Origin: Escherichia coli
GTDB lineage: Bacteria; Pseudomonadota; Gammaproteobacteria; Enterobacterales; Enterobacteriaceae
Assembly: GCF_022846255.1 (NCBI RefSeq)
Contig: NZ_AP025682.1
DNA length: 64,000 bases
Direction: 5' to 3' (one strand)
Shown here: piece after piece, positions 7,874 to 42,425 of the stretch
How the letters are laid out: every line of letters begins with the position of its first letter
How positions within the stretch are numbered: the first letter of the stretch is position 1
The notes under the pieces: model-generated
Seen by the model: only the letters and a program-made list of their open reading frames with translations
The model's database searches: none
What the model was told of the DNA's origin: nothing
Position numbers and translations under genes: made by a program

Positions 7874-8061
7874 GATTCTCTGCCATTCAATTTTAGGAAA
7901 AATGATATCAAACGAACGTTTTAGCAGGACTGTCGTCGGTTGCCAACCATCTGCGAGCAAAGCATGGCGTTTTGTTGCGCGGGATCAGCAAGCGTAGCGG
8001 CAGTTGTTTACGCTTTTATTACAGATTTAATAAATTACCACATTTTAAGAATATTATTAAT

Positions 8062-8086
8062 CTGTAATATATCTTTAACAATCTCA
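8062..8086 (+). promoter_or_regulatory. Candidate PhoB-binding Pho box of the phoE promoter
   Basis: CTGTAATATATCTTTAACAATCTCAG, two CTGTAAT/TTTAACA-like half sites about 75-100 nt upstream of the phoE start codon. Confidence 0.45.
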
Positions 8087-8160
8087 GGTTAAAAACTTTC
8101 CTGTTTTCAACGGGACTCTCCCGCTGAATATTCGCGCGTTAATTAAAATCAGGAATGAAA

Positions 8161-9216
8161 ATGAAAAAGAGCACTCTGGCATTAGTGGTGATGGGCATTG
8201 TGGCATCTGCATCCGTACAGGCCGCAGAAATATATAACAAAGACGGTAATAAACTGGATGTCTATGGCAAAGTTAAAGCCATGCATTATATGAGTGATAA
8301 CGACAGTAAAGATGGCGACCAGAGTTATATCCGTTTTGGTTTTAAAGGCGAAACACAAATTAACGATCAACTGACTGGTTATGGTCGTTGGGAAGCAGAG
8401 TTTGCCGGTAATAAAGCGGAGAGTGATACTGCACAGCAAAAAACACGTCTCGCTTTTGCCGGGTTGAAATATAAAGATTTGGGTTCTTTCGATTATGGTC
8501 GTAACCTGGGCGCGCTGTATGACGTGGAAGCCTGGACCGATATGTTCCCGGAATTTGGTGGCGACTCCTCCGCACAGACCGACAACTTTATGACCAAACG
8601 CGCCAGCGGTCTGGCGACGTATCGGAACACCGAATTCTTCGGCGTTATCGATGGCCTGAACTTAACCCTGCAATATCAAGGGAAAAACGAAAACCGCGAC
8701 GTTAAAAAGCAAAACGGCGATGGCTTCGGCACGTCATTGACATATGACTTTGGTGGCAGCGATTTCGCCATCAGTGGAGCCTATACCAACTCTGATCGCA
8801 CCAACGAGCAGAACCTGCAAAGCCGTGGCACAGGCAAGCGTGCAGAAGCATGGGCAACAGGTCTGAAATACGATGCCAATAATATTTATCTGGCAACTTT
8901 CTATTCTGAAACACGCAAAATGACGCCAATAACTGGCGGCTTTGCCAATAAGACACAGAACTTTGAAGCGGTCGCCCAATACCAGTTTGACTTTGGTCTG
9001 CGTCCGTCGCTGGGTTATGTCTTATCGAAAGGGAAAGATATTGAAGGAATCGGTGATGAAGATCTGGTCAATTATATCGATGTTGGTGCTACGTATTATT
9101 TCAACAAAAATATGTCGGCATTTGTTGATTATAAAATAAACCAACTGGATAGCGATAATAAGCTGAACATCAATAATGATGATATTGTCGCGGTTGGCAT
9201 GACCTATCAGTTTTAA
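8161..9216 (+). CDS. phoE: Phosphate-starvation outer membrane porin PhoE, 351 aa
   Basis: Start at [21 protein letters not shown] (signal peptide); C-terminal ...VAVGMTYQF typical of porins. Confidence 0.95.
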
Positions 9217-9223
9217 TGGATAT

Positions 9224-9246
9224 TGCCGGATGTGATGCATCCGGCA
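9224..9246. terminator. Hairpin between convergent phoE and crl, possible terminator
   Basis: GCCGGATG-tgatg-CATCCGGC perfect 8-bp stem; no strong U-run, so low confidence. Confidence 0.3.
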
Positions 9247-9254
9247 CATTTCAC

Positions 9255-9713
<459 letters not shown>

Positions 9714-10958
9714 TTAACACAACCGTTTTTCGATCCAGTCTGTGATTTCCTGAAGGCCTTTGTCAAAATTCCGATACACCGGGTTAAATGGGATCTCTAA
9801 TAATTTACCGTCAGCAGATGACGACGTGATTAAGCGTGAGTCCTCTTCCGGGCTGAACGGATCGTTCTTCCAGTAGCCTGATAACATTGGCGTTGGGCAG
9901 CGACGTCCCAGCAATCCTTGCACTTTTAATGAATAGCGATTCAACTCCACGCGCAACGCTTCATCGGAAGCATCATGCATCCCTAAACGACTGGCCAGAA
10001 CGTCAAGATACATTTCCGGCACCTGTTGCTGGCACTTAAAATCACTCAACAGGGTATGAACTACCGGACCAAGACAGGCAACCACTTTCAGACGCGGCGA
10101 TTCAAGGTATGCCAGACGCACGGCAACGTTAGCGCCGAAACGGAAACCAAAGGCCGCGACGCGAGTGTGATCCACCCACGGTACGTTAGGCAGCGCCTTT
10201 AAAACGTGCTGATGCAACAGGCTGGAGTCCTGGGTGAGCTTCCATTTTGAAGAAAAGCCCACCGACGGCATATCAATAGTCAGCATAGCAATGCCGCGCG
10301 GCGCAAAATAACGTTCATACAGGCTGTAATAGTCCGTCTGCATCGCATCCAGACCACCACACATTAATACTGTCGGGAACGGGCCATCGCCTTTCGGCAT
10401 ATGCAAAAAGCCGGTGATGGGCGCACCGCCGGGTACGGTAAACTCCATCTGCCGCATCGTGCCCGGCAGACGCTGAGCGGCCTCTTCATAGGCGCGGTTT
10501 GACAAAGCCTGCGCTTGCTCGGCCAGGTCATCTCCTTTCAGATGAGGATAGGCAGCAATGTTGTACAACGTAGCCGCATGCAGCCAGTGTCGACCGCTGA
10601 GTTGCGGATCTTCTTCCGCACAGGCTTTTTGTTGCCACACCATCGCCTGGGTAGCCCACTCATAAATCCAGTTGCCGCCGCGGTAGCCAATCACCGTATC
10701 GTATAAATCATCGTCGGTACGTTCGGCATCGCTCATCACAATACGCGCCTGGACATCGAGGATTTCACGTGGGTCAATGCCGCGCCAGATCCACATCAGA
10801 CGGTTAATCATGCGATACCAGTGAGGGATGGTTTTACCATCAAGGGCCGACTGCACAGGCAGTTGTGCGCCGTGACTAAAGCGGCGGACTAGCGTCGAGG
10901 TTTCAGGATGTTTAAAGCGGGGTTTGAACAGGGTTTCGCTCAGGTTTGCCTGTGTCAT
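9714..10958 (-). CDS. frsA: Esterase FrsA (alpha/beta hydrolase), 414 aa
   Basis: Full-length ORF recognised as FrsA. Confidence 0.93.
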
Positions 10959-11049
10959 GGATGCAGCCTCCAGAATACTTACTGGAAACTATTGTAACCC
11001 GCCTGAAGTTAAAAAGAACAACGCCCGGCAGTGCCAGGCGTTGAAAAGA

Positions 11050-11508
11050 TTAGCGACCGGAGATTGGCGGGACGAATACGACGCCCATATCCCACGGCTG
11101 TTCGATCCAGGTATTTTGCGGAATATCAACAACATAATCATCAACCAGCGGACGACCGGCCGGTTTTGCGAAGATGGTGACAAAGTGCGCTTTTGGATAC
11201 ATTTCACGAATCGCAACCGCAGTACCACCGGTATCTACCAGGTCATCAATAACGATGAAGCCTTCGCCATCGCCTTCTGCGCGTTTCAGCACTTTAAGCT
11301 CGCGCTGGTTGTCGTGATCGTAGCTGGAAATACAAACGGTATCGACATGACGAATACCCAGTTCACGCGCCAGTAACGCACCCGGTACCAGACCGCCACG
11401 GCTTACGGCAATAATGCCTTTCCATTGTTCAGAAGGCATCAGTCGGCTTGCGAGTTTACGTGCATGGATCTGCAACATGTCCCAGGTGACGATGTATTTT
11501 TCGCTCAT
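11050..11508 (-). CDS. gpt: Xanthine-guanine phosphoribosyltransferase, 152 aa
   Basis: Full-length match ([50 protein letters not shown]...). Confidence 0.97.
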
Positions 11509-11768
11509 GTGAAGTGTCCCAGCCTGTTTATCTACGGCTTAAAAAGTGTTCGAGGGGAAAATAGGTTGCGCGAGATTATAGAGATCTGGCGCACTAAAAA
11601 CCAGTATTTCACATGAGTCCGCGTCTTTTTACGCACTGCCTCTCCCTGACGCGGGATAAAGTGGTATTCTCAAACATATCTCGCAAGCCTGTCTTGTGTT
11701 GACAACATTTTCTGCTAACCCTGTGACCTGCAATACTGTTTTGCGGGTGATCGACAAGGAGACTTAAC

Positions 11769-13226
11769 GTGTCTGAACTGTCTCAATTATCTCCACAGCC
11801 GCTGTGGGATATTTTTGCCAAAATCTGTTCTATTCCTCACCCGTCCTATCATGAAGAGCAACTCGCTGAATACATTGTTGGTTGGGCAAAAGAGAAAGGT
11901 TTCCATGTCGAACGCGATCAGGTAGGTAATATCCTGATTCGTAAACCTGCTACCGCAGGTATGGAAAATCGTAAACCGGTCGTCTTGCAGGCCCACCTCG
12001 ATATGGTGCCGCAAAAAAATAACGACACCGTGCATGACTTCACCAAAGATCCTATCCAGCCTTATATTGATGGCGAATGGGTTAAAGCACGCGGCACCAC
12101 GCTGGGTGCGGATAACGGCATTGGTATGGCCTCTGCACTGGCGGTTCTGGCTGACGAAAACGTGGTTCACGGCCCGCTGGAAGTGCTGCTGACCATGACC
12201 GAAGAAGCCGGTATGGACGGTGCTTTTGGCTTACAGAGCAACTGGTTGCAGGCTGATATTCTGATTAACACCGACTCCGAAGAAGAAGGTGAAATCTACA
12301 TGGGTTGTGCGGGAGGTATCGACTTCACCTCCAACCTGCATTTAGATCGTGAAGCGGTTCCAGCTGGTTTTGAAACCTTCAAGTTAACCTTAAAAGGTCT
12401 GAAAGGCGGTCACTCCGGCGGTGAAATCCACGTTGGCCTGGGTAATGCCAACAAACTGTTGGTGCGCTTCCTGGCGGGTCATGCAGAAGAACTGGACCTG
12501 CGTCTTATTGATTTCAACGGCGGCACACTGCGTAACGCCATCCCGCGTGAAGCCTTTGCGACCATTGCTGTCGCAGCTGATAAAGTCGACACCCTGAAAT
12601 CTCTGGTGGATACCTATCAGGAGATCCTGAAAAACGAACTGGCAGAGAAAGAGAAAAATCTGGCATTGCTGCTGGACTCTGTTGCGAACGATAAAGCTGC
12701 CCTGATTGCGAAATCTCGCGATACCTTTATTCGTCTGCTGAACGCCACCCCGAACGGTGTGATCCGCAACTCCGACGTGGCAAAAGGTGTGGTCGAAACC
12801 TCCCTGAACGTCGGTGTGGTGACCATGACCGACAATAACGTAGAAATTCACTGCCTGATCCGTTCTCTGATCGACAGCGGTAAAGACTACGTAGTGAGCA
12901 TGCTGGATTCGCTGGGTAAACTGGCAGGTGCGAAAACCGAAGCAAAAGGCGCATATCCTGGCTGGCAGCCGGACGCTAACTCTCCGGTAATGCATCTGGT
13001 ACGTGAAACCTATCAGCGTCTGTTCAACAAAACGCCGAACATCCAGATTATCCACGCGGGCCTCGAATGTGGTCTGTTCAAAAAACCGTATCCGGAAATG
13101 GACATGGTGTCTATCGGGCCAACCATCACCGGTCCACACTCCCCGGATGAGCAAGTTCATATCGAAAGCGTTGGTCATTACTGGACGCTTCTGACTGAAC
13201 TGCTGAAAGAAATTCCGGCGAAGTAA
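11769..13226 (+). CDS. pepD: Cytosol non-specific dipeptidase (aminoacyl-histidine dipeptidase) PepD, 485 aa
   Basis: GTG start, full-length M20-family peptidase; divergent from gpt. Confidence 0.95.
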   Translation: MSELSQLSPQPLWDIFAKICSIPHPSYHEEQLAEYIVGWAKEKGFHVERDQVGNILIRKPATAGMENRKPVVLQAHLDMVPQKNNDTVHDFTKDPIQPYIDGEWVKARGTTLGADNGIGMASALAVLADENVVHGPLEVLLTMTEEAGMDGAFGLQSNWLQADILINTDSEEEGEIYMGCAGGIDFTSNLHLDREAVPAGFETFKLTLKGLKGGHSGGEIHVGLGNANKLLVRFLAGHAEELDLRLIDFNGGTLRNAIPREAFATIAVAADKVDTLKSLVDTYQEILKNELAEKEKNLALLLDSVANDKAALIAKSRDTFIRLLNATPNGVIRNSDVAKGVVETSLNVGVVTMTDNNVEIHCLIRSLIDSGKDYVVSMLDSLGKLAGAKTEAKGAYPGWQPDANSPVMHLVRETYQRLFNKTPNIQIIHAGLECGLFKKPYPEMDMVSIGPTITGPHSPDEQVHIESVGHYWTLLTELLKEIPAK

Positions 13227-13235
13227 TTATTTGAT

Positions 13236-13270
13236 TTGCTGCCGGATGGCGTTTAATCGCCTTCCGGCAG
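13236..13270. repeat. REP-like imperfect palindrome downstream of pepD
   Basis: CTGCCGGATGGCG-ttta-ATCGCCTTCCGGCAG, one mismatch in the stem. Confidence 0.4.
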
Positions 13271-13282
13271 TTTCATCCTTCA

Positions 13283-13897
13283 TTATCCTTCGATAAAAGC
13301 CATCCCTGTGAACGTTCGTCGCGGGTTGCCACGTTCAATCTGGTGATGGAACATTCGCCGCTGCGATTTCAGCGCCGCGCTATTTTCCTGTTGCTGTTGT
13401 TCCAGCTTCCAGGCAATCAGTAATCGCGCCAGCCGCTTGTTAGCATGCTGACTGCGCTCTGACTGAACCTTCACGCTAATACCGGATGCCAGATGCGTGG
13501 CGCGTACCGCCGAGTCGGTTTTATTGACATGTTGACCGCCCGGCCCCGACGAACGCAGCGTCTCATAACGGATCGCGTCGGATTGTTCCTGCTCATCAGC
13601 GGTAAAACGCCCAATGCCCAGAAACCAGTTTTTGCGCCCATGATGAGGCCGATACGGACTCGGACAAATCCACTGGATAGTGCCACACCAGCTTTCGCTT
13701 AGAGCCCATGCGTTATCGCCATCCAGAGAAATCAGCGCCGAACGCAGTGTGTCAGAGTAGCGACCCGTTTCTGTTTCCAGCACCGTTACCGCGACGTCCT
13801 GTCGGGTAGCTTCTTTAATCAGCCTGTCCAGTGCTTTTCTCACTGCGAGACAACATTCTTCCGGCCCCTGAGCAGAGGAGAGTTGTAGCAAGATCAT
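13283..13897 (-). CDS. prfH: Peptide chain release factor homologue PrfH (RF-H), about 204 aa, apparently intact
   Basis: Class-I release-factor-like sequence with the GGQ motif ([17 protein letters not shown]); start set at [16 protein letters not shown], where the ATG overlaps the rtcB-like stop (ATGA). Confidence 0.8.
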
Positions 13898-15045
13898 CCT
13901 TTTTTCCCTCCACTGTTTTTGAGCGTCAGCACCGGGCGCAGTCGCGCGACAGGAATAATTAACCCAGCCAGCACCAGACATTGCACCACGCTTTCAGCCG
14001 ATTTATAGGCTTGTGGCGCTTCTTCAAAGATGAGTTGTTTATCGCGACAAATTACCCGACTGCCAAGTTCAGTCCGCGAGAGTTGCGTCGCCGTGTATTT
14101 CGCTGCCAGACGCCCTTTACACTCGGTGCGCCCCCATTTACGCCCCGCCCCATGCGCCAGCGAGTGGAGCGTTTTTTCGTTCGCAACAGGTTTAACCAGC
14201 CAGGAGTAATCGCCGCGTGAACCGGGAATAATCACCAGACCGTTGTCATCCGGCGTGGCGCCTTTACGATGCAACCAGCCCTGTTGATCGCCGATTTGGC
14301 ACGCGCTAACAAAGTTATGCGCCACATCCAGAACCGGACTTCCGGTGGCCTTAACTTGTTGCATTATGCGCAAAGCGATCAGCTGGCGATTAATACGCGC
14401 AAACGCCAGCGCATCGTCATGTTCCGCAATATACCGTAGCGCGTCGTCACTGCCTTCAGGCAAACCATGATGCGAAAACGAGGCAATATGCCGCTGTAAA
14501 ATAGACTGCCCCAATCCCCTCGAGCCGCTATGAACCAGCAGTTGCAGATGCTGCGCATCCAGACCAGCCAGTGCAAACAGTTCCGCGTCGATAATTTGAT
14601 CAATCTGTTGCAGTTCTGCGAAGTGGTTACCGCCACCGATGGAGCCAAGCGAGTTGTGCCACGGATGCTGTGCAAATGCTGACGGCAGGTTTTCCTCCAG
14701 CCAGCTTTCTTCAGCAACGTCATCCAGATCTGATAATCGCTTTTCAAACTTATCGGCGTTGTATTTGCGAGCGAGAATATCTGTTTGCCATAGCGCCATG
14801 CCGCAGCCGATATCATTGCCGACCAGTGCCGGGTAAAAACGGCCTACGGAGAAGAACGCTGCGCCAATCGGGTAGCCGCGTCCGGGATGTAAATCTGGCA
14901 TCCCCACAACGCGCTGCATGTTGGGTAAATTTGCCGTGGTGTGTAATTGTTGGATCGCTAAACTCTCGATCCACAGGTCATCAGATGCGATGGTAAATAC
15001 CGCATCGGATAAGGGACGAATATATTTGCCCATGTACCATTCCAT
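13894..15045 (-). CDS. RtcB-family RNA ligase paralogue coupled to prfH (ykfJ region in K-12), 383 aa
   Basis: RtcB-like His/Cys-rich motifs ([22 protein letters not shown]); translationally coupled to prfH. Confidence 0.8.
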
Positions 15046-23725: not shown

Positions 23726-23842
23726 ATAATTTTTATGTGAATAATCAATAAATTGAAAAAGGGGCGGAAATGGTGTTTCCGGTCTGGCGGAAAAAAGCCT
23801 GCCGCTGAAAGCACAACACCGCCCGCAGGCGGTGTTGTTCGT

Positions 23843-23873
<31 letters not shown>

Positions 23874-23883
23874 AAGTCCGCCA

Positions 23884-24798
23884 TTACTGCAGCAGGCTGG
23901 AAACCATGCTGGACATGCTGTTGGACTGTTTCAGCATGGTGATGCCGGTCTGCATCAGCACCTGCTGTTTAGTCATGTTGGACGCTTCCGTCGCGTAGTC
24001 GGTATCCATAATGTTACCGATAGCGACTTCGGTGTTGTCCTGCATACTGGTCAGGTTATTAGCGGTGTCGTTCAGACGGTTGATAGACGCCCCCAGCTTG
24101 GACTGGATCTGCGAAACATCATCCATCGCGGTAGAAATGCTGGTGATCATCTGGTTAGCCGAGCCAGACGCAGTCAGCTCAGTACCGCCAGAAACGCCTG
24201 CGGTGCCAGTGGTGTCAGCCTGATCCGCACTGAAGGAGTTGCTGATAGCAGAAAGATCCGTCACCAGGGTATTCAGCTGGCTTGAAATATTCACGGTCAT
24301 GGTGTCGGAAGATTCCGCGCCCACCTGGAAAGTTACTGCGCTCTGGAACAGACCGTCAGTACCGGTGTTGCTGGTACCGGAAACACCGAACAGGTTGGTG
24401 CCGCCGTAAGTGGTGTTTTGCAGCATGTCAGACATCTGCTGACCCAGTTCATCGTATTCGTCCTGCATCGCCTGCAGATCGTCGTCGCTGTAGGTGCCGT
24501 TCGCTGCCTGAGTTGACAGGTCTTTCATACGACCCAGCACATCAGACATTTCGTCGAACATGCTGTCAGCGGTTTGCAGCATCGCGGTGGCATCATTGAT
24601 GTTGCTCAGCGCCACACCCATACCGCTGGACTGTGCTGTCAGACGGTTAGCAATTTGTTTGCCTGCGGCGTCATCGGCAGAAGAGTTAATCCGGTTACCC
24701 GTTGCCAGGCGTTCCATAGATGTAGACAGAGAAGAGCTGCTTTTACTGATTGCATTAACGGCGGCCATTGAGGCGTTATTGGTGTTAATAGATAACAT
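23884..24798 (-). CDS. lafA: Lateral flagellin LafA, about 304 aa
   Basis: Conserved flagellin N-terminus (MLSINTNNASMAAVNAISKS...) and C-terminus (...LMQTGITMLKQSNSMSSMVSSLLQ); start at 24798 has an AAGGAG Shine-Dalgarno; short Ser/Thr-rich variable domain. Confidence 0.9.
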   Translation of the reverse strand: MLSINTNNASMAAVNAISKSSSSLSTSMERLATGNRINSSADDAAGKQIANRLTAQSSGMGVALSNINDATAMLQTADSMFDEMSDVLGRMKDLSTQAANGTYSDDDLQAMQDEYDELGQQMSDMLQNTTYGGTNLFGVSGTSNTGTDGLFQSAVTFQVGAESSDTMTVNISSQLNTLVTDLSAISNSFSADQADTTGTAGVSGGTELTASGSANQMITSISTAMDDVSQIQSKLGASINRLNDTANNLTSMQDNTEVAIGNIMDTDYATEASNMTKQQVLMQTGITMLKQSNSMSSMVSSLLQ

Positions 24799-25232
24799 GA
24801 TACTGCTCCTTGGGATTAATCGTTTTCGTTTCGATACCCTGTAAAAACGACACCTCAGGAGCAAACTTAAAATCGCCGTTAAAATTTTTTCGCCACGTAT
24901 TATCCGATGCCACTTTTAGCTAAAAAAAGCAGAGGTTAAATTCAGATAAAAAGATTATTAGCAATATCTGCCACATGGCCAGGAATCAAAATATGTCTTT
25001 ATCAAATGCTTGATATAGTTAAGATTGTCATCAATTAACGCGTTTTCTTCTCAATGTACTGATGCCAAAATTTACATTGCGTTGCAAATAGTACACGTTT
25101 AGCTATTGTGCCTGTCCTGTCATTTCGTTACATTTCCACGCCATATAGTGATTAAGAATAATCCTATTACCATAAAATATTAATTATCACGCAGAAAAAT
25201 CATCTTCTCAGGGACGTATAAGACTGTGCTTT

Positions 25233-37365: not shown

Positions 37366-37794
37366 GTGAGTATCCGGTTACAACAGGTGAAGGCGTTGTT
37401 GCAGGGCATTCGTGACGACGACGCACTGTACGATTCCCTGCGCGAACTTCTCCAGCGTCAGCGGATCTGCATGATTCGCCGCGCCAGCGAAGATCTGCTG
37501 GCGGTAAACGACGAGATAACGCAGCACTATGAACAGTTGCATGGGCATAGCCATCAGCGGCACAGCCTGCTGAAAATGCTTAATGTCAGTGTAAATCGTG
37601 ACGGTCTGGCGCAGGTTTTTGCCTGGCTTCCGGCTGTGCAAAAAGCAGCAGCACAACAGTTGTGGCAACGCCTTGAGCAAAAAGCGGAACGCTGCAAAGC
37701 CTACAACGACAAAAACGGCGAGCTGTTGATTCGCCAGTATGAATTTATTCAGTCTTTTTTAGGCGGCGAAACAGATTTTCTGTACCAGGAATAA
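37366..37794 (+). CDS. lfgN: Export chaperone LfgN (FlgN-like), 142 aa
   Basis: Helical ORF immediately downstream of the flgM-like gene. Confidence 0.7.
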   Translation: MSIRLQQVKALLQGIRDDDALYDSLRELLQRQRICMIRRASEDLLAVNDEITQHYEQLHGHSHQRHSLLKMLNVSVNRDGLAQVFAWLPAVQKAAAQQLWQRLEQKAERCKAYNDKNGELLIRQYEFIQSFLGGETDFLYQE

Positions 37795-37921: not shown

Positions 37922-38851
37922 ATGAGTTTTATTGAATGTTACGAACCGGAATACGTGCGCAATTTTATGACGCAATATCCCGATTCGCCTTTGTACGTCC
38001 GCAAGGTCTGGAAGAATGAGATTCGCCAGAGCCTGGCATTGACCGATATTGAAAGTTGCAAAGCGGTGCTCAACGATGCCAGGGCCTTTGATTTACAGCT
38101 CACCTACCGCCCTGTGGAAGACAATGCCGCCGAGCTATCCGCGCGCGATGCGATAGTAAACCAGGCCATTTTGAGCACCCTTACGCTCCCCGATTTAACC
38201 CCGGAGCTTTCCCTGTATGCCGTCGGGATTTTGCTCTCCCGCGCCAGTAAAATGCCGGGCAGAGACGGAGATATTCTTGCCCGCTTGACGACGCTGCCAC
38301 AGGCGCTGGGGGATCATGCACAAAAAGGCACGCTACAGGCACAGTTCGCCCAACTCCCACCCGTGCCACAACTGGCGCGCCAACTGGTGACGCTGCTCGG
38401 GAGTTTTGCGTTTGACTGGTCGATTTTGCCGGAAAGCCCGCGCAAAGCCTCGCTACCGTTGCAGGTGACTTTGCTGACGTTGCATGACGCCAACAGCGAA
38501 GCTTTGTTGCAACAGCAGCTTAAGGTGCAGTGGCAAACCACCTGGCAACAGCATTTTGCCGCCGCGCCGTGGATGATGCGCAACTGGCTGATTTACCGAG
38601 TTTATCACGACGTGATTGGGCAGGCAGACGGAGCAGATTATTGCCCGCTGGTGTGTGATTTTTATCTCATCCGCACGTTAATCAGTTTATGGACGCTGGA
38701 TGGTTCTGCGCTGCGGCAGGAGGATATTTTCGCCCTCTTTGCCATGTTTGAACGCTGGCGGACCAGTGAAAATGCGCTGTTTATTCGCCAGCAAATTCAG
38801 TCGTTATGTGCCGCAGAGCCGCTGCTGTCAGCGTTTTCGCTGCTGACGTGA
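37922..38851 (+). CDS. Hypothetical protein, about 309 aa, no recognisable domain; first gene of the putative modification module
   Basis: ATG at 37922 with a GGAAG Shine-Dalgarno; same strand as, and upstream of, the multidomain glycosyltransferase. Confidence 0.55.
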   Translation: MSFIECYEPEYVRNFMTQYPDSPLYVRKVWKNEIRQSLALTDIESCKAVLNDARAFDLQLTYRPVEDNAAELSARDAIVNQAILSTLTLPDLTPELSLYAVGILLSRASKMPGRDGDILARLTTLPQALGDHAQKGTLQAQFAQLPPVPQLARQLVTLLGSFAFDWSILPESPRKASLPLQVTLLTLHDANSEALLQQQLKVQWQTTWQQHFAAAPWMMRNWLIYRVYHDVIGQADGADYCPLVCDFYLIRTLISLWTLDGSALRQEDIFALFAMFERWRTSENALFIRQQIQSLCAAEPLLSAFSLLT

Positions 38852-38861
38852 GTCGCTCTGT

Positions 38862-38993
38862 GCGCGCTTTGCCCCTCACCCTAACCCTCTCCCCAAAGGG
38901 GCGAGGGGACCGATCGAGCACGGTGTTAAAATCGGCGCTGGTTTTCTCCCTCTCCCTGTGGGAGGGGGTCGGGGTGAGGGCATCAGCGCGCAC
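38862..38993. repeat. ~130-bp compound palindromic intergenic repeat, copy B, inverted relative to copy A
   Basis: GCCCCTCACCCTAACCCTCTCCCCAAAGGGGCGAGGGGACCGATCG...CTCCCTCTCCCTGTGGGAGGGGGTCGGGGTGAGGG; reverse complement of 29572..29705. Confidence 0.6.
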
Positions 38994-39029
38994 ATTCATC
39001 ACATTCACCCATTAACTCACCCAGACACC

Positions 39030-41474
39030 ATGCCAACACCGACCATCATCAAAACACTCGCCACCCACCGCGAAAAACCGTTCGTCAGCGTCGTCACGCC
39101 AACCTGGAACCGCGGCGCATTCCTGCCGTACCTGCTTTATATGTACCGCTATCAGGACTACCCGGCAGACCGCCGCGAACTGGTCATCCTCGACGATTCC
39201 CCGCAAAGCCATCAACACATCATCGACCGCCTGACCAATGGCACGCCGGAGTCCTTCAACATCCGCTACATCCATCACCCGGAAAAACTGCCGCTGGGCA
39301 AAAAACGCAACATGCTCAACGAACTGGCGCGCGGCGAATACATCCTCTGCATGGACGATGACGACTACTACCCGGCAGATAAAATCTCTTACACCATCGC
39401 TATGATGCAAAAAAACCGGGCGCTCATCTCCGGTTCCGACCAGATCCCCATCTGGTACAGCCACATCAATCGCATCTTTCAAAGCCGCAGCTTCGGCCCG
39501 CATAACATCCTCAACGGCACCTTTTGCTATCACCGTAACTACCTGAAAAAGCACCGCTACGATGACGATTGCAATTTAGGCGAAGAGAAAAGTTTCACCG
39601 ACAATTTCAGCGCTAACCCGCTACAACTGCCCGGCGAGCGCACGATTTTGTGTATCTCGCACAGCCACAACACCTTTGATAAAGACTTTATCCTCGGGGC
39701 CAGCACGCCTGTAAACGCGGCGCTTACGGATATCGTCAGCGATCCGCTGCTACGCAACGCTTATCTGGGTCTGCATAACGCCACTCATTATCAGGCGATC
39801 CAGCATCAGGCGATCGATCAGATCGTTCTGCTGAATCTGGATAAACGCCCGGATCGCTTACAGCAGATCCGTGAAGAACTGACATTGCTGCATATTCCGC
39901 CTGAGAAGATCACCCGCCTTGCCGCCAGTGAAAATGAAAACGGTCAACGGGGCCGCCAGCAATCACACTTGCAGGCGCTGCATCTGGCGCAACAGCACGG
40001 CTGGCAAAACTATCTGCTGCTGGAAGATGACGCGGTTATTCTCAAACAGGAGAAACATATTCAGGTGCTGAACGCGCTGCTGGCGAGCCTGGCGAAAATT
40101 CCCTGGCAGGTGATGATCCTCGGCGGCGAAATTTCGCAGGGAACGATGCTAAAAAGTTTGCCTGGGCTGGTGCACGCGCGGGACTGCCGCAAAGTGTGCG
40201 CTTATCTGGTGAACAGCCGCTACTACCTGCAGCTGGCGCAGCAGATGAACAACGATGAGCATTCGCTGGAAGGCGGCTGGCAGCCGCTGCTGCGCACCGA
40301 CAAATGGCTGGCCTGTTACCCGAGCCTTTGTTATCAGCGACCGGGCTTTAGTGATATCGAGAAAAAAGCGACTGATAACATTAACCACTACTTCAATAAG
40401 TTACCCGTAGCCACCAAGCCATCTACATTACCTATCGCCGATACCATCGGCTTTTTTATGGAAACCTCATTCCACTACGCGCTCTACCGCCCAATCATCA
40501 CTGCCCTACAGGCGCAAGGACAAAGCTGCACGCTGGTGATCAACGACCGCGTGTTTAAACCGTTTCTGGATGAAATGCTGAATACGTTAAAAAGCATCGA
40601 CGATCCACAGCTCAAAGGAATGCGCTTATCGGAAATGCAGGCACACGGTCAGCGAGTAAAATGCCTGGTCAGCCCCTATCACACGCCTGCGCTCAGTGGC
40701 CTTTCCCCCCTGAACATTCGCGCCATGTACGGCTTAGCCAAAGAAACGTGGAACCACGCCGACTGGAACCGTTTTTATCAGCGCATTTTGTGTTACAGCC
40801 ACTACAGTCAGCGGGCGCTGGCACATTTCGGCAGCGCAAAAGTGGTCGGCAACCCACGCTTCGACGCCTGGCATAACGGCACGTTCGACCGCGCTCTGCC
40901 GGAAAATATCCAACCCGATTCCCGTAAACCTACGGTGCTCTATGCCCCCACGTTTGGCGCATTAAGCTCCCTGCTCCACTGGGCAGAAAAATTGGGGCGT
41001 TTGAGCGGCGATGTGAACCTGATTTGCAAACTGCACCACGGCACCTGCTCGCGCCCGGAAGAAGCCGCATCGCTGGCACTGGCGCGCAGGCATTTAAAAC
41101 AGCGCACCGACTCTGCCCGCCACACGCTGGCGCTACTGGCAAAGGCCGATTACGTGCTCACCGATAACAGCGGGTTTATTTTCGATGCTATCCACGTTGA
41201 TAAACGGGTGATCCTGCTCGACTTTCCGGGCATGACGGAACTGCTCGACGGTGAGAAAAGCTACTCCACGGCAGAGAGCGCCGACCAGCGAATCCGCGAA
41301 ATATTGCCGGTGGCTCATGATGTTGCGGAACTGCGTTACTTATTGTCAGAGGTATTTGACTGGGGGGCGGTTCAGACGCGGCTTACGGAAATTCGCCATC
41401 ACTATTGCGATGCGTTTATGGATGGCAAGGCGGGAGAACGAGCGGCGTTGGTGATTGTGGAGGCGTTGGGGTAA
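39030..41474 (+). CDS. Three-domain glycosyltransferase, about 814 aa: GT2-like + GT25-like + TagB/TagF-like CDP-glycerol glycerophosphotransferase (domain calls by motif)
   Basis: GT-A signatures (VSVVTPTWNRG, VILDDSP, CMDDDDYYPADK); GT25-like block (LLNLDKRPDRLQQI...LLLEDDAVIL); TagF-like block (VLYAPTFG...LTDNSGFIFDAIHVDKRVILL); start codon uncertain (39030 ATG vs 38958 GTG inside the repeat). Confidence 0.75.
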   Translation: MPTPTIIKTLATHREKPFVSVVTPTWNRGAFLPYLLYMYRYQDYPADRRELVILDDSPQSHQHIIDRLTNGTPESFNIRYIHHPEKLPLGKKRNMLNELARGEYILCMDDDDYYPADKISYTIAMMQKNRALISGSDQIPIWYSHINRIFQSRSFGPHNILNGTFCYHRNYLKKHRYDDDCNLGEEKSFTDNFSANPLQLPGERTILCISHSHNTFDKDFILGASTPVNAALTDIVSDPLLRNAYLGLHNATHYQAIQHQAIDQIVLLNLDKRPDRLQQIREELTLLHIPPEKITRLAASENENGQRGRQQSHLQALHLAQQHGWQNYLLLEDDAVILKQEKHIQVLNALLASLAKIPWQVMILGGEISQGTMLKSLPGLVHARDCRKVCAYLVNSRYYLQLAQQMNNDEHSLEGGWQPLLRTDKWLACYPSLCYQRPGFSDIEKKATDNINHYFNKLPVATKPSTLPIADTIGFFMETSFHYALYRPIITALQAQGQSCTLVINDRVFKPFLDEMLNTLKSIDDPQLKGMRLSEMQAHGQRVKCLVSPYHTPALSGLSPLNIRAMYGLAKETWNHADWNRFYQRILCYSHYSQRALAHFGSAKVVGNPRFDAWHNGTFDRALPENIQPDSRKPTVLYAPTFGALSSLLHWAEKLGRLSGDVNLICKLHHGTCSRPEEAASLALARRHLKQRTDSARHTLALLAKADYVLTDNSGFIFDAIHVDKRVILLDFPGMTELLDGEKSYSTAESADQRIREILPVAHDVAELRYLLSEVFDWGAVQTRLTEIRHHYCDAFMDGKAGERAALVIVEALG

Positions 41475-41484
41475 ACCGCGCAAG

Positions 41485-41566
41485 TGCCTGATGCGCTTCG
41501 CTTATCAGGCCTACGGATCGATCACGTCTTGTAGGCAGATAAGGCGTTTACGCCGCATCCGGAAAG
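41485..41566. repeat. Pair of REP elements downstream of the glycosyltransferase gene
   Basis: GCCTGATGCGCTTCGCTTATCAGGCCTAC and GTAGGCAGATAAGGCGTTTACGCCGCATCCGG. Confidence 0.6.
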
Positions 41567-41583
41567 AAACAAACATCTCTGTG

Positions 41584-41988
41584 TTAGTACTTTATATAAT
41601 TCCCCCTAATCACCTCAATGATCCCCGTCGTCGATACCGACGGCGTACGGGGAAAATAGACCACCTCACAGATACACGAGAAATCGTCAAACTTCCCTGC
41701 CCAGTCATCACCCATCACCAAAATATCCGCACTGTACCCCCACAGATATTCCGCTTTCTGCGCCAGCGACTCCTCCAGAAATACGCCATCCACGCACGCC
41801 AGCCCGGCGATGATCGACATGCGGTCATCCTGATGGTAAACCGGTGCTCTGCCCTTTTTGGCGATATTTAAGGCGTCGGACGATACGCCGACCAGCAGCC
41901 GTTCGCCCAGCGTGCGGGCGCGTTGTAAAAGGCGCAGATGACCGACATGAAACACATCGAAGGTGCCGAAGGTGATGACCGTTTTCAT
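41584..41988 (-). CDS. TagD-like cytidylyltransferase (glycerol-3-phosphate cytidylyltransferase family), about 134 aa
   Basis: Nucleotidyltransferase HxGH-type motif (ITFGTFDVFHVGHLRLL) and size matching TagD/TarD-type enzymes; start set at MKTVITFG, 2 nt after the lfiJ stop. Confidence 0.75.
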   Translation of the reverse strand: MKTVITFGTFDVFHVGHLRLLQRARTLGERLLVGVSSDALNIAKKGRAPVYHQDDRMSIIAGLACVDGVFLEESLAQKAEYLWGYSADILVMGDDWAGKFDDFSCICEVVYFPRTPSVSTTGIIEVIRGNYIKY

Positions 41989-41990
41989 GG

Positions 41991-42425
41991 CTACTCCGCT
42001 AATTTGTGCCGTAGCCAGCACTGAACGGCGATATCATCCACCGCTTTTTGCGCTTTCGCCGTGGCACTTTCATGCTGCTCGCGGCGTTTGTCATCCAGCG
42101 TCAGGGCCACCACTTTCTCTTCGCACGCCGCCGCCGTCAGGTTTTTCTGCATTCGCGTAGCCTTGATGTTAGCCAGCGTTTTTTCCTGCTCCTGCCAGGC
42201 GATCACCTTGCGTAAGGTGCCTTTGTAGCCGCTGACGTTTTTCAGCGATTCCACCGACGCCGCCGCGTCCGCAGACGTTTTCTCCACCAGGTAGCCTAAC
42301 GCTTTGATATTGTTGTCATAGCCCGCGCAGATCTGTTTTTGCTTTGCCAGTTCGACGGTTTTGTCTTTGACCGATTTATCCCGCAGGCGCTGCAACTGCG
42401 CCAGAGTGTCGATGATTTGTCGCAT
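41991..42425 (-). CDS. lfiJ: Export chaperone-like LfiJ (FliJ-like), 144 aa
   Basis: Coiled-coil ORF immediately downstream of the fliI-like ATPase. Confidence 0.75.
   Translation of the reverse strand: MRQIIDTLAQLQRLRDKSVKDKTVELAKQKQICAGYDNNIKALGYLVEKTSADAAASVESLKNVSGYKGTLRKVIAWQEQEKTLANIKATRMQKNLTAAACEEKVVALTLDDKRREQHESATAKAQKAVDDIAVQCWLRHKLAE

Follow-up and report, generated by a model that had tools for sequence, protein, structure and literature searches.

The gene at positions 23884–24798 of the window (the whole stretch of 64,000 nucleotides of Escherichia coli DNA analyzed here) is lafA, the known lateral flagellin gene of the E. coli Flag-2 locus. O-linked modification of its product, LafA, is plausible, with support that comes from the gene context and not from the composition of the protein. 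By analogy with characterized systems, we put the probability of the Flag-2 glycosylation explanation as a whole, in which a glycosyltransferase (GT), a TagF-like domain and CDP-glycerol would be combined, at about 0.5. The idea of a glycosylated LafA is not new, as the glycosyltransferases of variable region 1, TagD, TagB-like enzymes and LafV were already predicted in 2020 to modify the Flag-2 flagellin (PMC6993521). The present analysis adds a negative result for Ser/Thr content, the hypothesis of a sugar followed by glycerol-phosphate, and two candidate acceptor loops in LafA (residues 129–154 and 195–212).

Identification of lafA

The gene and its translation signal are located as follows.

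23884–24798, minus strand: lafA, lateral (Flag-2) flagellin, 304 aa, calculated mass 31,668 Da, pI 4.05
24806–24811, minus strand: AAGGAG ribosome-binding site, 7 nt 5′ of the lafA ATG, read from the sequence

The reading frame runs on the minus strand from an ATG at 24798 to a stop codon ending at 23884 and translates into 304 residues. LafA matches the NCBIfam model NF033376 (“lateral flagellin LafA”) along its entire length (aligned 1–304 of 304; 667.3 bits, cutoff 440), and contains the Pfam domains Flagellin_N (PF00669, residues 4–138, 120 bits) and Flagellin_C (PF00700, residues 219–303, 77 bits). These matches bear out the identification as lateral flagellin in the first-pass annotation, whose quoted peptide strings are all present in the translation. 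The annotated E. coli lafA is 99.2% identical in nucleotide sequence, and E. coli LafA proteins in the databases are 99–100% identical to that of the window. LafA is said to have been described as the lateral flagellin of E. coli Flag-2 by Ren et al. in 2005. Synteny with E. coli SMS-3-5 and with 78 Flag-2 loci places lafA between lafB (fliD) and lafZ/lafW in cluster 3. The Flag-2 reading frames on the lafU-to-lfiJ side follow the order of the genes annotated in SMS-3-5 and are of about the same length, and those outside it were judged by size alone.

Ser/Thr content of LafA

LafA had been described as having a middle region dominated by Ser, Thr, Gly, Asp and Asn. Residues 139–218 do contain 33.8% Ser+Thr and 57.5% of these five residues, compared to 23.7% and 47% in the remainder of the protein, but the Ser/Thr enrichment is not local (Fisher's exact p = 0.10 for residues 139–218 and p = 0.052 for residues 140–240). 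The sliding-window check proposed with that description gave 12 Ser/Thr in the richest 30-residue window, no more than expected on shuffling LafA's own residues (P = 0.95); the same applies to the richest 80-residue window, with 28 (P = 0.43). The buried D0 termini are just as rich, at 33% and 31%. Among 125 diverse flagellin representatives, the 26.3% Ser+Thr of whole LafA corresponds to the 99th percentile, and the ratio of middle to termini, 1.43, only to the 76th. We conclude that Ser/Thr richness characterizes the entire protein throughout this LafA clade; it provides possible acceptor sites and is not evidence of glycosylation.

The first-pass annotation also considered this composition typical of flagellins carrying O-glycans, a view that is not sustained by comparison across loci. 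In 39 Flag-2 loci of different species, the Ser+Thr fraction of the middle region does not differ significantly with the presence of the transferase (Mann-Whitney p = 0.08, uncorrected for phylogeny), with a median of 0.295 (range 0.18–0.36) in loci with the transferase and 0.225 (range 0.11–0.40) in loci with an empty variable region. Counter-examples occur in both directions. The LafAs richest in Ser/Thr, those of Rosenbergiella (0.38–0.40) and Tatumella (0.29–0.31), belong to compact loci devoid of cargo genes, and a Burkholderia homologue with 43% identity to LafA, adjoining a complete modification operon, contains only 13.7%. Mass spectrometry of Aeromonas hydrophila lateral flagellins revealed an unmodified protein in strain AH-1 and a glycosylated one in AH-3 (PMC4691044); the unmodified AH-1 LafA shows that the enzymes present, and not the composition of the flagellin, determine whether modification occurs. 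Thus, Ser/Thr content should not serve to infer flagellin glycosylation.

Predicted structure of the middle region

A short “surface domain” had also been proposed for LafA. The AlphaFold (AF2) model and Foldseek comparisons instead indicate a flagellin fold limited to D0/D1, with no D2/D3 outer domain and no separate surface domain. The best matches in the PDB are short flagellins and filament cores (Shewanella oneidensis FlaA/B, the Pseudomonas aeruginosa core and Bacillus subtilis Hag). The middle region consists of a loop (residues 129–154), the conserved D1 β-hairpin (155–169), an extra helix (172–194) and a low-confidence loop (195–212), encoded as follows.

24337–24414, minus strand: variable loop 1, codons 129–154 (TTYGGTNLFGVSGTSNTGTDGLFQSA), 35% Ser+Thr, non-helical in the AF2 model; candidate acceptor region
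24217–24336, minus strand: D1 β-hairpin (VTFQVGAESSDTMTV) and extra helix (172–194), codons 155–194, from AF2 secondary structure
24163–24216, minus strand: variable loop 2, codons 195–212 (DTTGTAGVSGGTELTASG), 39% Ser+Thr, indel hot spot; candidate acceptor region

The hairpin and helix are modeled with a pLDDT of 81–90 up to residue 180, which drops to 69 across residues 181–190 and to below 50 in residues 191–203. The segment of residues 155–194 contains numerous invariant columns in the orthologue alignment, and the FQVGA motif of its hairpin is common to S. oneidensis FlaB and Clostridioides difficile FliC peptides. Loop 1 is likewise an indel hot spot among orthologues, and the small indels of E. 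coli LafA variants (an 8-residue duplication, found in loop 1 of one allele, and deletions of 3–4 residues) fall in the two loops. We regard the loops as surface-like because they are indel hot spots of low model confidence. Based on the model, the outer filament face would be made up of the D1 hairpin, the extra helix and the two flexible, Ser/Thr/Gly-rich loops. By count, the two predicted loops hold 16 Ser/Thr and the hairpin with the extra helix 13 more. The C. difficile glycopeptide AGGTTGTDAAK-TMVSSLDAALK aligns with variable loop 2.

Two further leads were discarded. E. coli LafA variants of 252–280 residues were considered as natural loop deletions; most of them remove D1 helices or the hairpin and look defective or mis-assembled. 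A local alignment between a C. difficile glycopeptide and LafA shares the hexapeptide VSGTSN, which is found on one side of the hairpin in LafA and on the other in the C. difficile protein; we took this match as a low-complexity coincidence, not positional homology.

The candidate modification module of variable region 1

Variable region 1 of the window is bounded by lfgN and lfiJ and contains only three genes, lafV, the glycosyltransferase gene and tagD.

37366–37794, plus strand: lfgN (FlgN homologue), one boundary of variable region 1 (SMS-3-5 annotation; BLAST, 78 loci)
37922–38851, plus strand: lafV, 309 aa, weakly FliB-like (NCBIfam NF038110, 37.6 bits, cutoff 85)
39030–41474, plus strand: 814-aa three-domain transferase (Pfam GT2, 66 bits; AF2 model; Foldseek)
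41584–41988, minus strand: tagD-like glycerol-3-phosphate cytidylyltransferase, 134 aa (Pfam CTP_transf_like, 62.9 bits, above cutoff)
41991–42425, minus strand: lfiJ (FliJ homologue), other boundary of variable region 1 (SMS-3-5 annotation; BLAST, 78 loci)

A glycosyltransferase module 15 kb from lafA had been noted earlier. The module exists in the locus, but it starts 13.1 kb from lafA (lafV ATG, 37922), and the transferase reading frame 14.2 kb away (ATG, 39030). Both lafV and the transferase gene follow lfgA-M-N on one strand, and two hypothetical genes of SMS-3-5 are missing from this shorter variable region. A scan for σ28 promoters (TAAAGTTT-N10-12-GCCGATAA, up to 4 mismatches) 5′ of lafA, lafV and the transferase gene returned nothing convincing, and a generic scan for σ70 promoters and terminators remained at background level.

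The transferase, numbered here on the 838-aa mechanical reading frame (the true start gives 814 aa), consists of a GT2 GT-A domain (Pfam, residues 44–158), a second, GT25/COLGALT1-like GT-A domain (approximately residues 285–472) and a TagF-like GT-B domain (residues 495–838). Foldseek matches its N-terminal part to COLGALT1 (E = 7e-12), a protein-glycosylating tandem GT-A enzyme, and its C-terminal domain to TagF (3l7j, E = 1.6e-9) and TarL (E = 1.7e-8); UDP-GlcNAc 2-epimerases resemble the C-terminal fold about equally well, and the model of the GT2 domain is poor over half its length (pLDDT < 50, residues 124–253). The Glyphos_transf match of the window transferase, at 17 bits, does not reach the cutoff of 22.1. 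Among 22 orthologues, GT2 is detected in all 22, Glyphos_transf in 14 (E-values down to 1e-8) and GT25 in 3. Profile searches with the full-length transferase matched GT2 enzymes only, and a sequence search of the C-terminal domain against the PDB gave only spurious matches (E about 0.1). An hhalign comparison of an alignment of this domain with a Burkholderia Glyphos_transf protein is too weak to be relied on (probability 2%, E = 0.023); it pairs GNPRFD with GHPKLD, LYAPT with LWNPH, KLHH with RPHP, and TDNSG..FD with TDTSS..YE, which we take to be motifs of the TagF family.

The best NCBIfam match of the TagD-like protein is TIGR01518 (TagD), at 112 bits against an equivalog cutoff of 165. 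Its ATG is located 2 nt beyond the stop codon of lfiJ, a flagellar export gene to which it is translationally coupled. LafV covers only positions 106–363 of NF038110 and is below the equivalog cutoff; it is named “lysine-N-methylase” in some genomes (PGAP), and is 25% identical to a Burkholderia protein bearing Pfam FliB_C.

Of the 78 Flag-2 loci, which come from many genera, 44 encode the N-terminal GT module or the TagF-like domain. The C-terminal domain varies by lineage and is TagF-like, KpsC/S-like or absent, and in the 841-aa Plesiomonas homologue it falls in no assigned family. TagD accompanies the TagF-like domain, which was found in all 15 TagD-positive loci. Among the 37 loci whose variable region is visible in full, TagD occurs in 6 of 8 with the domain and in 0 of 29 without it (Fisher p = 1.2e-5). 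LafV and the transferase are found together in Flag-2 loci. In Burkholderia oklahomensis, one operon encodes a GT (45% identity), a FliB_C protein, a methyltransferase, a HAD protein, a nucleotidyltransferase and a Glyphos_transf protein, followed by the flagellin that is 43% identical to LafA.

Proposed modification and its alternatives

Of the two arguments put forward earlier for O-linked modification, linkage holds, since the module is located inside Flag-2 variable region 1, and composition failed the tests above. Upon expression of Flag-2, LafA would be O-glycosylated in the cytoplasm by the enzymes of variable region 1, ahead of type III export. Within the 814-aa protein, one or both GT-A domains would transfer one or two sugars onto exposed Ser/Thr, to which the C-terminal TagF-like domain would then attach sn-glycerol-phosphate by a phosphodiester bond. 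The donor, CDP-glycerol, would come from the TagD-like cytidylyltransferase, co-translated with lfiJ. The logic would be that of the phospho-glycans of C. difficile type A and P. aeruginosa b-type (FgtA) flagellins, with glycerol replacing N-methyl-threonine.

We tentatively extend this proposal to a more specific and rather doubtful version, in which the Flag-2 filament of Escherichia and Citrobacter would carry a teichoic-acid-like O-linked sugar with a glycerol-phosphate cap, made by one three-domain enzyme and a CDP-glycerol synthase from a flagellar operon, with a capping domain that is swappable between lineages. A swappable capping domain would, if true, generate lineage-specific filament surfaces. 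The literature searched contained no flagellin with a glycan bearing glycerol-phosphate. Should the proposed modification of LafA take place, many gut Enterobacterales would display an anionic phospho-glycan on their Flag-2 filaments, and this could affect filament assembly, surface charge, recognition by phages and antibodies, and perhaps innate immune sensing. Residues 93–233 of LafA contain neither Lys nor Arg, so that bottom-up mass spectrometry of tryptic peptides would leave the entire candidate region undetected.

The target of the transferase is assigned by gene neighborhood alone, and could be another flagellar component or a component of the envelope. A serious, if less favored, possibility is that LafA is not glycosylated at all, that its Ser/Thr richness is a lineage trait (small polar residues, few Lys/Arg and many Met), and that the enzymes act on a different target, for example a further flagellar protein or a polymer of the envelope, or are decaying cargo. 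The absence of local enrichment, with Ser/Thr richness reaching the buried D0 and the D1 helices, is as expected for such a trait, as are the equally or more Ser/Thr-rich LafAs of loci without modification genes and the unmodified flagellin of A. hydrophila AH-1. Variable region 1 is also an insertion hot spot, IS elements included. Against this, the enzyme set is kept inside flagellar loci across genera and classes, and in Burkholderia it is directly 5′ of the flagellin gene. The translational coupling of tagD to a flagellar export gene points the same way, and every characterized set of such enzymes (C. difficile and P. aeruginosa) targets flagellin.

It is also conceivable, if unlikely, that Flag-2 is cryptic in this host. 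In that case lafA and the modification genes, though intact, would be silent under natural conditions, and the composition would be without function at present. Western blots of E. coli EC958 at 28 or 37 °C revealed no LafA, and a lafA mutant had no motility phenotype (PMC4637896); modification may therefore never happen in practice. Flag-2 has been deleted from most E. coli, with a full lafA in only 1267 of 5426 complete genomes, and Flag-2 loci are often mutated according to the literature. A silent locus is harder to reconcile with the agreement of the lafU-to-lfiJ reading frames with SMS-3-5, and with LafA being 96–100% identical among Escherichia lineages, its conserved helices unaltered. 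The Flag-2 system of Yersinia enterocolitica is reportedly expressed at low temperature. Lysine methylation by LafV as the main modification in place of O-glycosylation, as by FliB in Salmonella, is very improbable despite the weak FliB-likeness and lysine-N-methylase annotation of LafV, its presence alongside the transferase and the five methylated lysines in the middle segment of S. oneidensis FlaB (PMC3765264), as none of the six lysines of LafA is located in residues 93–233, the part expected to be exposed, LafV scores far below the FliB cutoff, and the transferase and TagD would be left unexplained.

Comparison with known systems

The Flag-2 LafA of Enterobacterales (De Maayer et al. 2020, PMC6993521) is the same protein in the same position between lafB (fliD) and lafZ, and nothing substantive sets the LafA of the window apart from it. 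The best structural match is to S. oneidensis FlaA/FlaB (PDB 9oxj, 9oxk and 9lah; Foldseek E = 6e-10), which are also limited to D0/D1, similar in size and share the conserved FQVGA hairpin. FlaB is glycosylated at S105, S143, S171, S180 and S185 (PMC3765264), of which S105 is upstream of the segment equivalent to the LafA middle and the other four are within it. The same segment of FlaB contains the methylated lysines, whereas LafA has no lysine there. The Shewanella glycan is a nonulosonic-acid derivative of a Maf-type pathway, unlike the window locus; no Maf or nonulosonic-acid (pse/leg) genes are annotated in the syntenic 41.6-kb region or found among the Pfam-scanned variable-region proteins. 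Aeromonas and Plesiomonas have homologous lateral flagellar systems, and the LafAs of A. hydrophila AH-3 and P. shigelloides bear glycans, which are pseudaminic or legionaminic acids.

In C. difficile, CD0240 (GT), CD0242 (cytidylyltransferase) and CD0244 (TagF-like) build GlcNAc-P-N-methyl-Thr on FliC peptides of residues 135–166 and 191–212, and P. aeruginosa PA1091 is a fusion of GT and phosphotransferase domains (PMC10714395). The C. difficile target is a short flagellin, as is LafA, and its mapped sites are in the segment of hairpin and loop equivalent to residues 129–225 of LafA; the P. aeruginosa b-type flagellin has 488 residues. Compared to C. difficile, the cytidylyltransferase of the window is of the TagD type (CDP-glycerol) and not of the CD0242 family, and the window is without a HAD-type phosphotransferase (CD0241) and a SAM methyltransferase (CD0243), both of which are present in the Burkholderia locus. 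The window transferase also differs from both CD0240–CD0244 and FgtA in its extra GT25-like GT-A domain, and the module in its distance of 13–14 kb from the flagellin gene. Like C. difficile 630 CD0240–CD0244 and PAO1 PA1088–PA1091, the window combines a GT-A domain, a putative TagF-like phosphotransferase domain (with a match below cutoff in the window) and a cytidylyltransferase for a CDP-activated donor, and, as in FgtA, GT and putative phosphotransferase are in one polypeptide. Likened by domain families, the phospho-glycan system of C. difficile type A and P. aeruginosa FgtA thus appears to be the closest analogue of the module.

Identity and setting of lafA

Window positions 23884–24798 correspond to the already annotated lafA gene, encoding the lateral (Flag-2) flagellin, and the first-pass identification is borne out by a full-length NCBIfam match and by synteny.

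24798 (ATG) to 23884 (stop), minus strand: lafA, 304 residues, the sole ORF at 23884–24798
7 nt upstream of the lafA ATG, minus strand: AAGGAG ribosome-binding site

The NCBIfam lateral flagellin LafA model covers the whole protein (667 bits, cutoff 440), with Pfam Flagellin_N at residues 4–138 and Flagellin_C at residues 219–303. At the DNA level it is 99.2% identical to the lafA annotated in numerous E. coli strains, SMS-3-5 among them, and 1267 of the 5426 complete E. coli genomes carry the gene in full. The locus runs lafU ... lafB, lafA, lafZ, lafW, lfgL ... lfgN, variable region 1, lfiJ ...; the genes annotated in SMS-3-5 are matched in order, and roughly in length, by the ORFs on the lafU-to-lfiJ side, and Flag-2 ORFs outside that side were assigned by size alone. 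A longer, mechanically called ORF over lafA that begins with TTG is an artefact of the rule used to choose starts. Between lafA and lafB (23790–23880) lies a REP/BIME-type palindromic element (gccggataaggcgtttacgccgcatccggc), which accounts for the 61,902 matches in 5352 E. coli genomes obtained with a 1.6-kb lafA-region query.

Serine and threonine content of LafA

The middle of LafA had been described as a Ser/Thr-rich surface domain with a composition typical of O-glycan-bearing flagellins. The peptides quoted in support are present, and the segment between the Pfam regions (residues 139–218) does contain 33.8% Ser+Thr and 57.5% Ser, Thr, Gly, Asp and Asn (23.7% and 47% in the remainder), but this is not a local enrichment. 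The middle and the rest do not differ clearly in Ser+Thr by Fisher's exact test (p = 0.10 for residues 139–218; p = 0.052 for residues 140–240, the span of about 100 residues originally proposed). In the proposed sliding-window check, shuffles of LafA's own residues reproduce its richest windows, both of 30 residues (12 Ser/Thr, P = 0.95) and of 80 residues (28 Ser/Thr, P = 0.43). Ser+Thr is as frequent at the N terminus (39 residues, 33%) and the C terminus (35 residues, 31%), the segments that form the buried D0 core in any flagellar filament. For reference, we used 125 usable representatives from the 150 nearest 50%-identity flagellin clusters.

Ser+Thr in LafA and its rank among the 125 representatives
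Middle: 33.8%, 96.8th percentile
Termini: 23.7%, 98.4th percentile
Whole protein: 26.3%, 99.2nd percentile
Middle/termini ratio: 1.43, 76th percentile

Since middle, termini and whole protein all rank high and the ratio reaches only the 76th percentile, the unusual trait is the Ser-richness of the entire protein, not a Ser/Thr-rich insert. The middle of E. coli K-12 FliC, which is not known to be glycosylated, contains 23.5% Ser+Thr.

LafA is also rich in Met (6.9%, 95th percentile of 130 flagellins) and Ser (15.1%, 99th) and poor in Arg (1.6%, 1st), with a pI of 4.05. Met reaches 5–8% in nearly all Flag-2 LafAs examined, and numerous Leu/Ile positions of FliC-type flagellins are Met in LafA. 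Lys and Arg are absent between K92 and K234 (residues 93–234, window 24097–24522). Trypsin would therefore yield a single 142-residue peptide (D93–K234) covering all of the candidate glycosylation region, and the putative lysine methylase LafV would have no target in the exposed part, as residues 93–233 contain no Lys.

Predicted structure of the LafA middle

The AlphaFold model, computed from 24 orthologues, has a mean pLDDT of 72 (80–95 in the D1 part) and the following elements.

Residues 40–100, 105–128 and 213–269: helices
Residues 155–158 and 166–169: beta-hairpin
Residues 172–194: extra helix
Residues 195–212: unstructured stretch (pLDDT below 50 for residues 191–203)

Because its best Foldseek matches in the PDB are short or core flagellins (S. 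oneidensis FlaA/FlaB, the P. aeruginosa core, B. subtilis Hag, Kurthia and Roseburia), LafA is a D0/D1-only flagellin, without the separate surface domain proposed earlier. The hairpin and extra helix are conserved in the orthologue alignment; residues 138–148 and 191–205 are hypervariable and harbor all indels, including insertions of 60–70 residues in two Citrobacter-type flagellins. Among E. coli alleles, the first spot shows an 8-residue duplication and the second 3–4-residue deletions. These two loops are the credible candidates for exposed segments.

The transferase module of variable region 1

A glycosyltransferase module had been placed 15 kb from lafA. The module exists, at 13.1 kb (to lafV, its start) or 14.2 kb (to the transferase ORF), and consists of three genes whose starts were corrected from mechanical ORF calls.

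37922–38851: lafV, weakly FliB-like (37.6 bits, cutoff 85)
39030–41474: 814-residue transferase; Pfam GT2, 66 bits; Glyphos_transf (TagF-like) sub-threshold at 17 bits (cutoff 22.1)
41584–41988: tagD-like cytidylyltransferase, 134 residues; best family TagD, 112 bits (below the equivalog cutoff of 165); Pfam CTP_transf_like, 63 bits

Among 22 transferase orthologues, GT2 is detected in all, Glyphos_transf in 14 (down to 1e-8), and GT25 and Epimerase_2 in three each. The AlphaFold model of the transferase is confident over residues 280–470 and 495–838 (838-residue ORF numbering). Foldseek pairs the N-terminal ∼560 residues with human collagen galactosyltransferase COLGALT1 (E = 7e-12), a tandem GT-A protein glycosyltransferase, and the C-terminal domain with TagF (E = 1.6e-9), TarL and UDP-GlcNAc 2-epimerases. 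The 24-codon N-terminal extension of the 838-residue ORF is spurious and contains a GC-rich boxC-like inverted repeat (CTCCCTCTCCCTGTGGGAGGGGGTCGGGGTGAGGG; 38945–38990) between lafV and the transferase; the true start is the ATG at 39030.

The tagD-like gene is almost certainly translated as the final gene of the flagellar lfiEFGHIJ operon, judging from its ATG 2 nt past the lfiJ stop codon, with GGAG in the final lfiJ codons as ribosome-binding site; a predicted CDP-glycerol synthase thus appears to be wired into the flagellar export operon. Two hypothetical genes (822 and 540 nt) that separate transferase and tagD in SMS-3-5 (38091–39780 of its locus) are missing from the window at 41475–41583. 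None of the complete E. coli genomes among the matches listed is colinear with the window there, the best being 96% identical in two pieces, and other strains carry an ISEc13 insertion between transferase and tagD.

Distribution of the module

Scanning genomes with the rod protein LfgF as seed gave 78 loci. Most of them come from many Enterobacterales genera and contain Flag-2 marker genes; three Burkholderiales-type MAG loci lack these markers. The N-terminal GT module or a TagF-like domain occurs in 44 of the 78. The transferase family (window 39030–41474 and compared proteins P0198, P0199, P0205 and P0228) is modular: the N-terminal module (∼470 residues, two GT-A domains) stands alone, as in Burkholderia and Erwinia, or is fused to a TagF-like or KpsC/S-like (Pfam PF05159) domain, or, in an 841-residue Plesiomonas homologue, to a C-terminal part without family assignment. 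Some loci have the TagF-like domain but no detectable N-terminal module in the stretch examined. TagD is found only beside a TagF-like domain (15 of 15 TagD-positive loci); where the whole variable region is visible (37 loci), it accompanies six of eight TagF-like domains and none of the 29 regions without one (Fisher p = 1.2e-5, ignoring kinship).

In Burkholderia oklahomensis (positions 8001–14617 of its locus), an operon encodes a GT (45% identical to the window transferase over 450 residues), a FliB_C protein, a methyltransferase, a HAD hydrolase, a nucleotidyltransferase and a Glyphos_transf protein. It lies directly upstream of a 300-residue flagellin (43% identical to LafA), followed by motAB and flhA, in a second flagellar cluster.

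Two loci are unusual. In a MAG contig titled Citrobacter sp. HRGM_Genome_0066, LfgF and LafA are 100% identical to those of the window (85–95% in named Citrobacter species); the bin may be mislabelled, or the locus transferred recently. The Flag-2 locus of Enterobacteriaceae bacterium RIT691 appears rearranged: lfiJ and lfiI adjoin lafZ at the expected lafA position, unassigned ORFs follow lfgN, and the 20 kb examined yielded no flagellin.

Composition does not follow the enzymes

LafA was readable in 48 Flag-2 loci, 27 with the transferase and 12 with an empty variable region (<1.3 kb, no matches). Middle Ser+Thr does not separate these two groups (median 0.295, range 0.18–0.36, versus 0.225, 0.11–0.40; Mann-Whitney p = 0.08, ignoring kinship), nor does whole-protein Ser+Thr (p = 0.62). 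Compact loci have high values in Rosenbergiella (0.27–0.40) and Tatumella (0.29–0.31), whose flagellar clusters contain as sole unassigned ORFs two of 120–140 residues at the lfiJ and lfgJ positions. In Erwinia oleae, which carries the complete module, the value is 0.18, and the flagellin beside the B. oklahomensis operon contains 13.7% Ser+Thr overall. One mixed LafA clade hints at a trend, in small numbers (∼0.26 transferase-positive, ∼0.18 empty). By mass spectrometry, A. hydrophila LafA is unmodified in AH-1, and glycosylated LafA has been reported in AH-3 (PMC4691044). With overlapping ranges over 39 loci and counter-examples in both directions, Ser/Thr composition is not predictive of the enzymes and not diagnostic of glycosylation, the role it had been assigned.

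Comparison with known systems

The argument from linkage is sound, as the module lies within Flag-2 variable region 1 and a homologous operon adjoins a Burkholderia flagellin, and it is already published. De Maayer et al. (2020) catalogued GT2-1 in 222 strains, TagD in 235, TagB-like enzymes, and LafV in 342 of 592 loci, and proposed that these enzymes glycosylate and methylate Flag-2 flagellin, including with teichoic-acid-like polymers (PMC6993521); a 2024 E. albertii study repeats the modification proposal. Western blots of E. coli EC958 showed no LafA at 28 or 37 °C, and mutating lafA did not impair motility (PMC4637896). We put at about one half the probability that any LafA produced is O-glycosylated by the variable-region enzyme; that its glycan carries glycerol-phosphate is a tentative proposal, and rather doubtful. 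Our additions are the three-domain transferase architecture, the TagD/TagF-like coupling, the Burkholderia operon, the type A/FgtA analogy, the candidate loops and the 142-residue tryptic fragment.

In C. difficile CD0240–CD0244, a GT attaches GlcNAc to FliC, and a cytidylyltransferase and a TagF-like phosphotransferase add phospho-N-methyl-threonine; P. aeruginosa FgtA (PA1091) combines GT and phosphotransferase domains in one protein (PMC10714395). The B. oklahomensis operon has the same enzyme list as CD0240–CD0244 and looks like a complete counterpart of that set in a β-proteobacterium. The C. difficile FliC glycopeptides span residues 135–166, including the LQVGA hairpin strand, and 191–212, a block that runs from slightly ahead of the C-terminal D1 helix into it and aligns with LafA 202–225. 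S. oneidensis FlaB, the best structural match of LafA, is O-glycosylated at S105, S143, S171, S180 and S185 and methylated at five lysines (K159–K189) (PMC3765264). These FlaB sites lie around its FQVGA hairpin (148–152; 157–161 in LafA). Four of the five glycosylated serines (S143–S185), as well as the C. difficile sites, thus fall in the segment equivalent to the LafA middle, with S105 upstream of it. The five methylated lysines of FlaB are also in this segment, where LafA, in contrast, has none.
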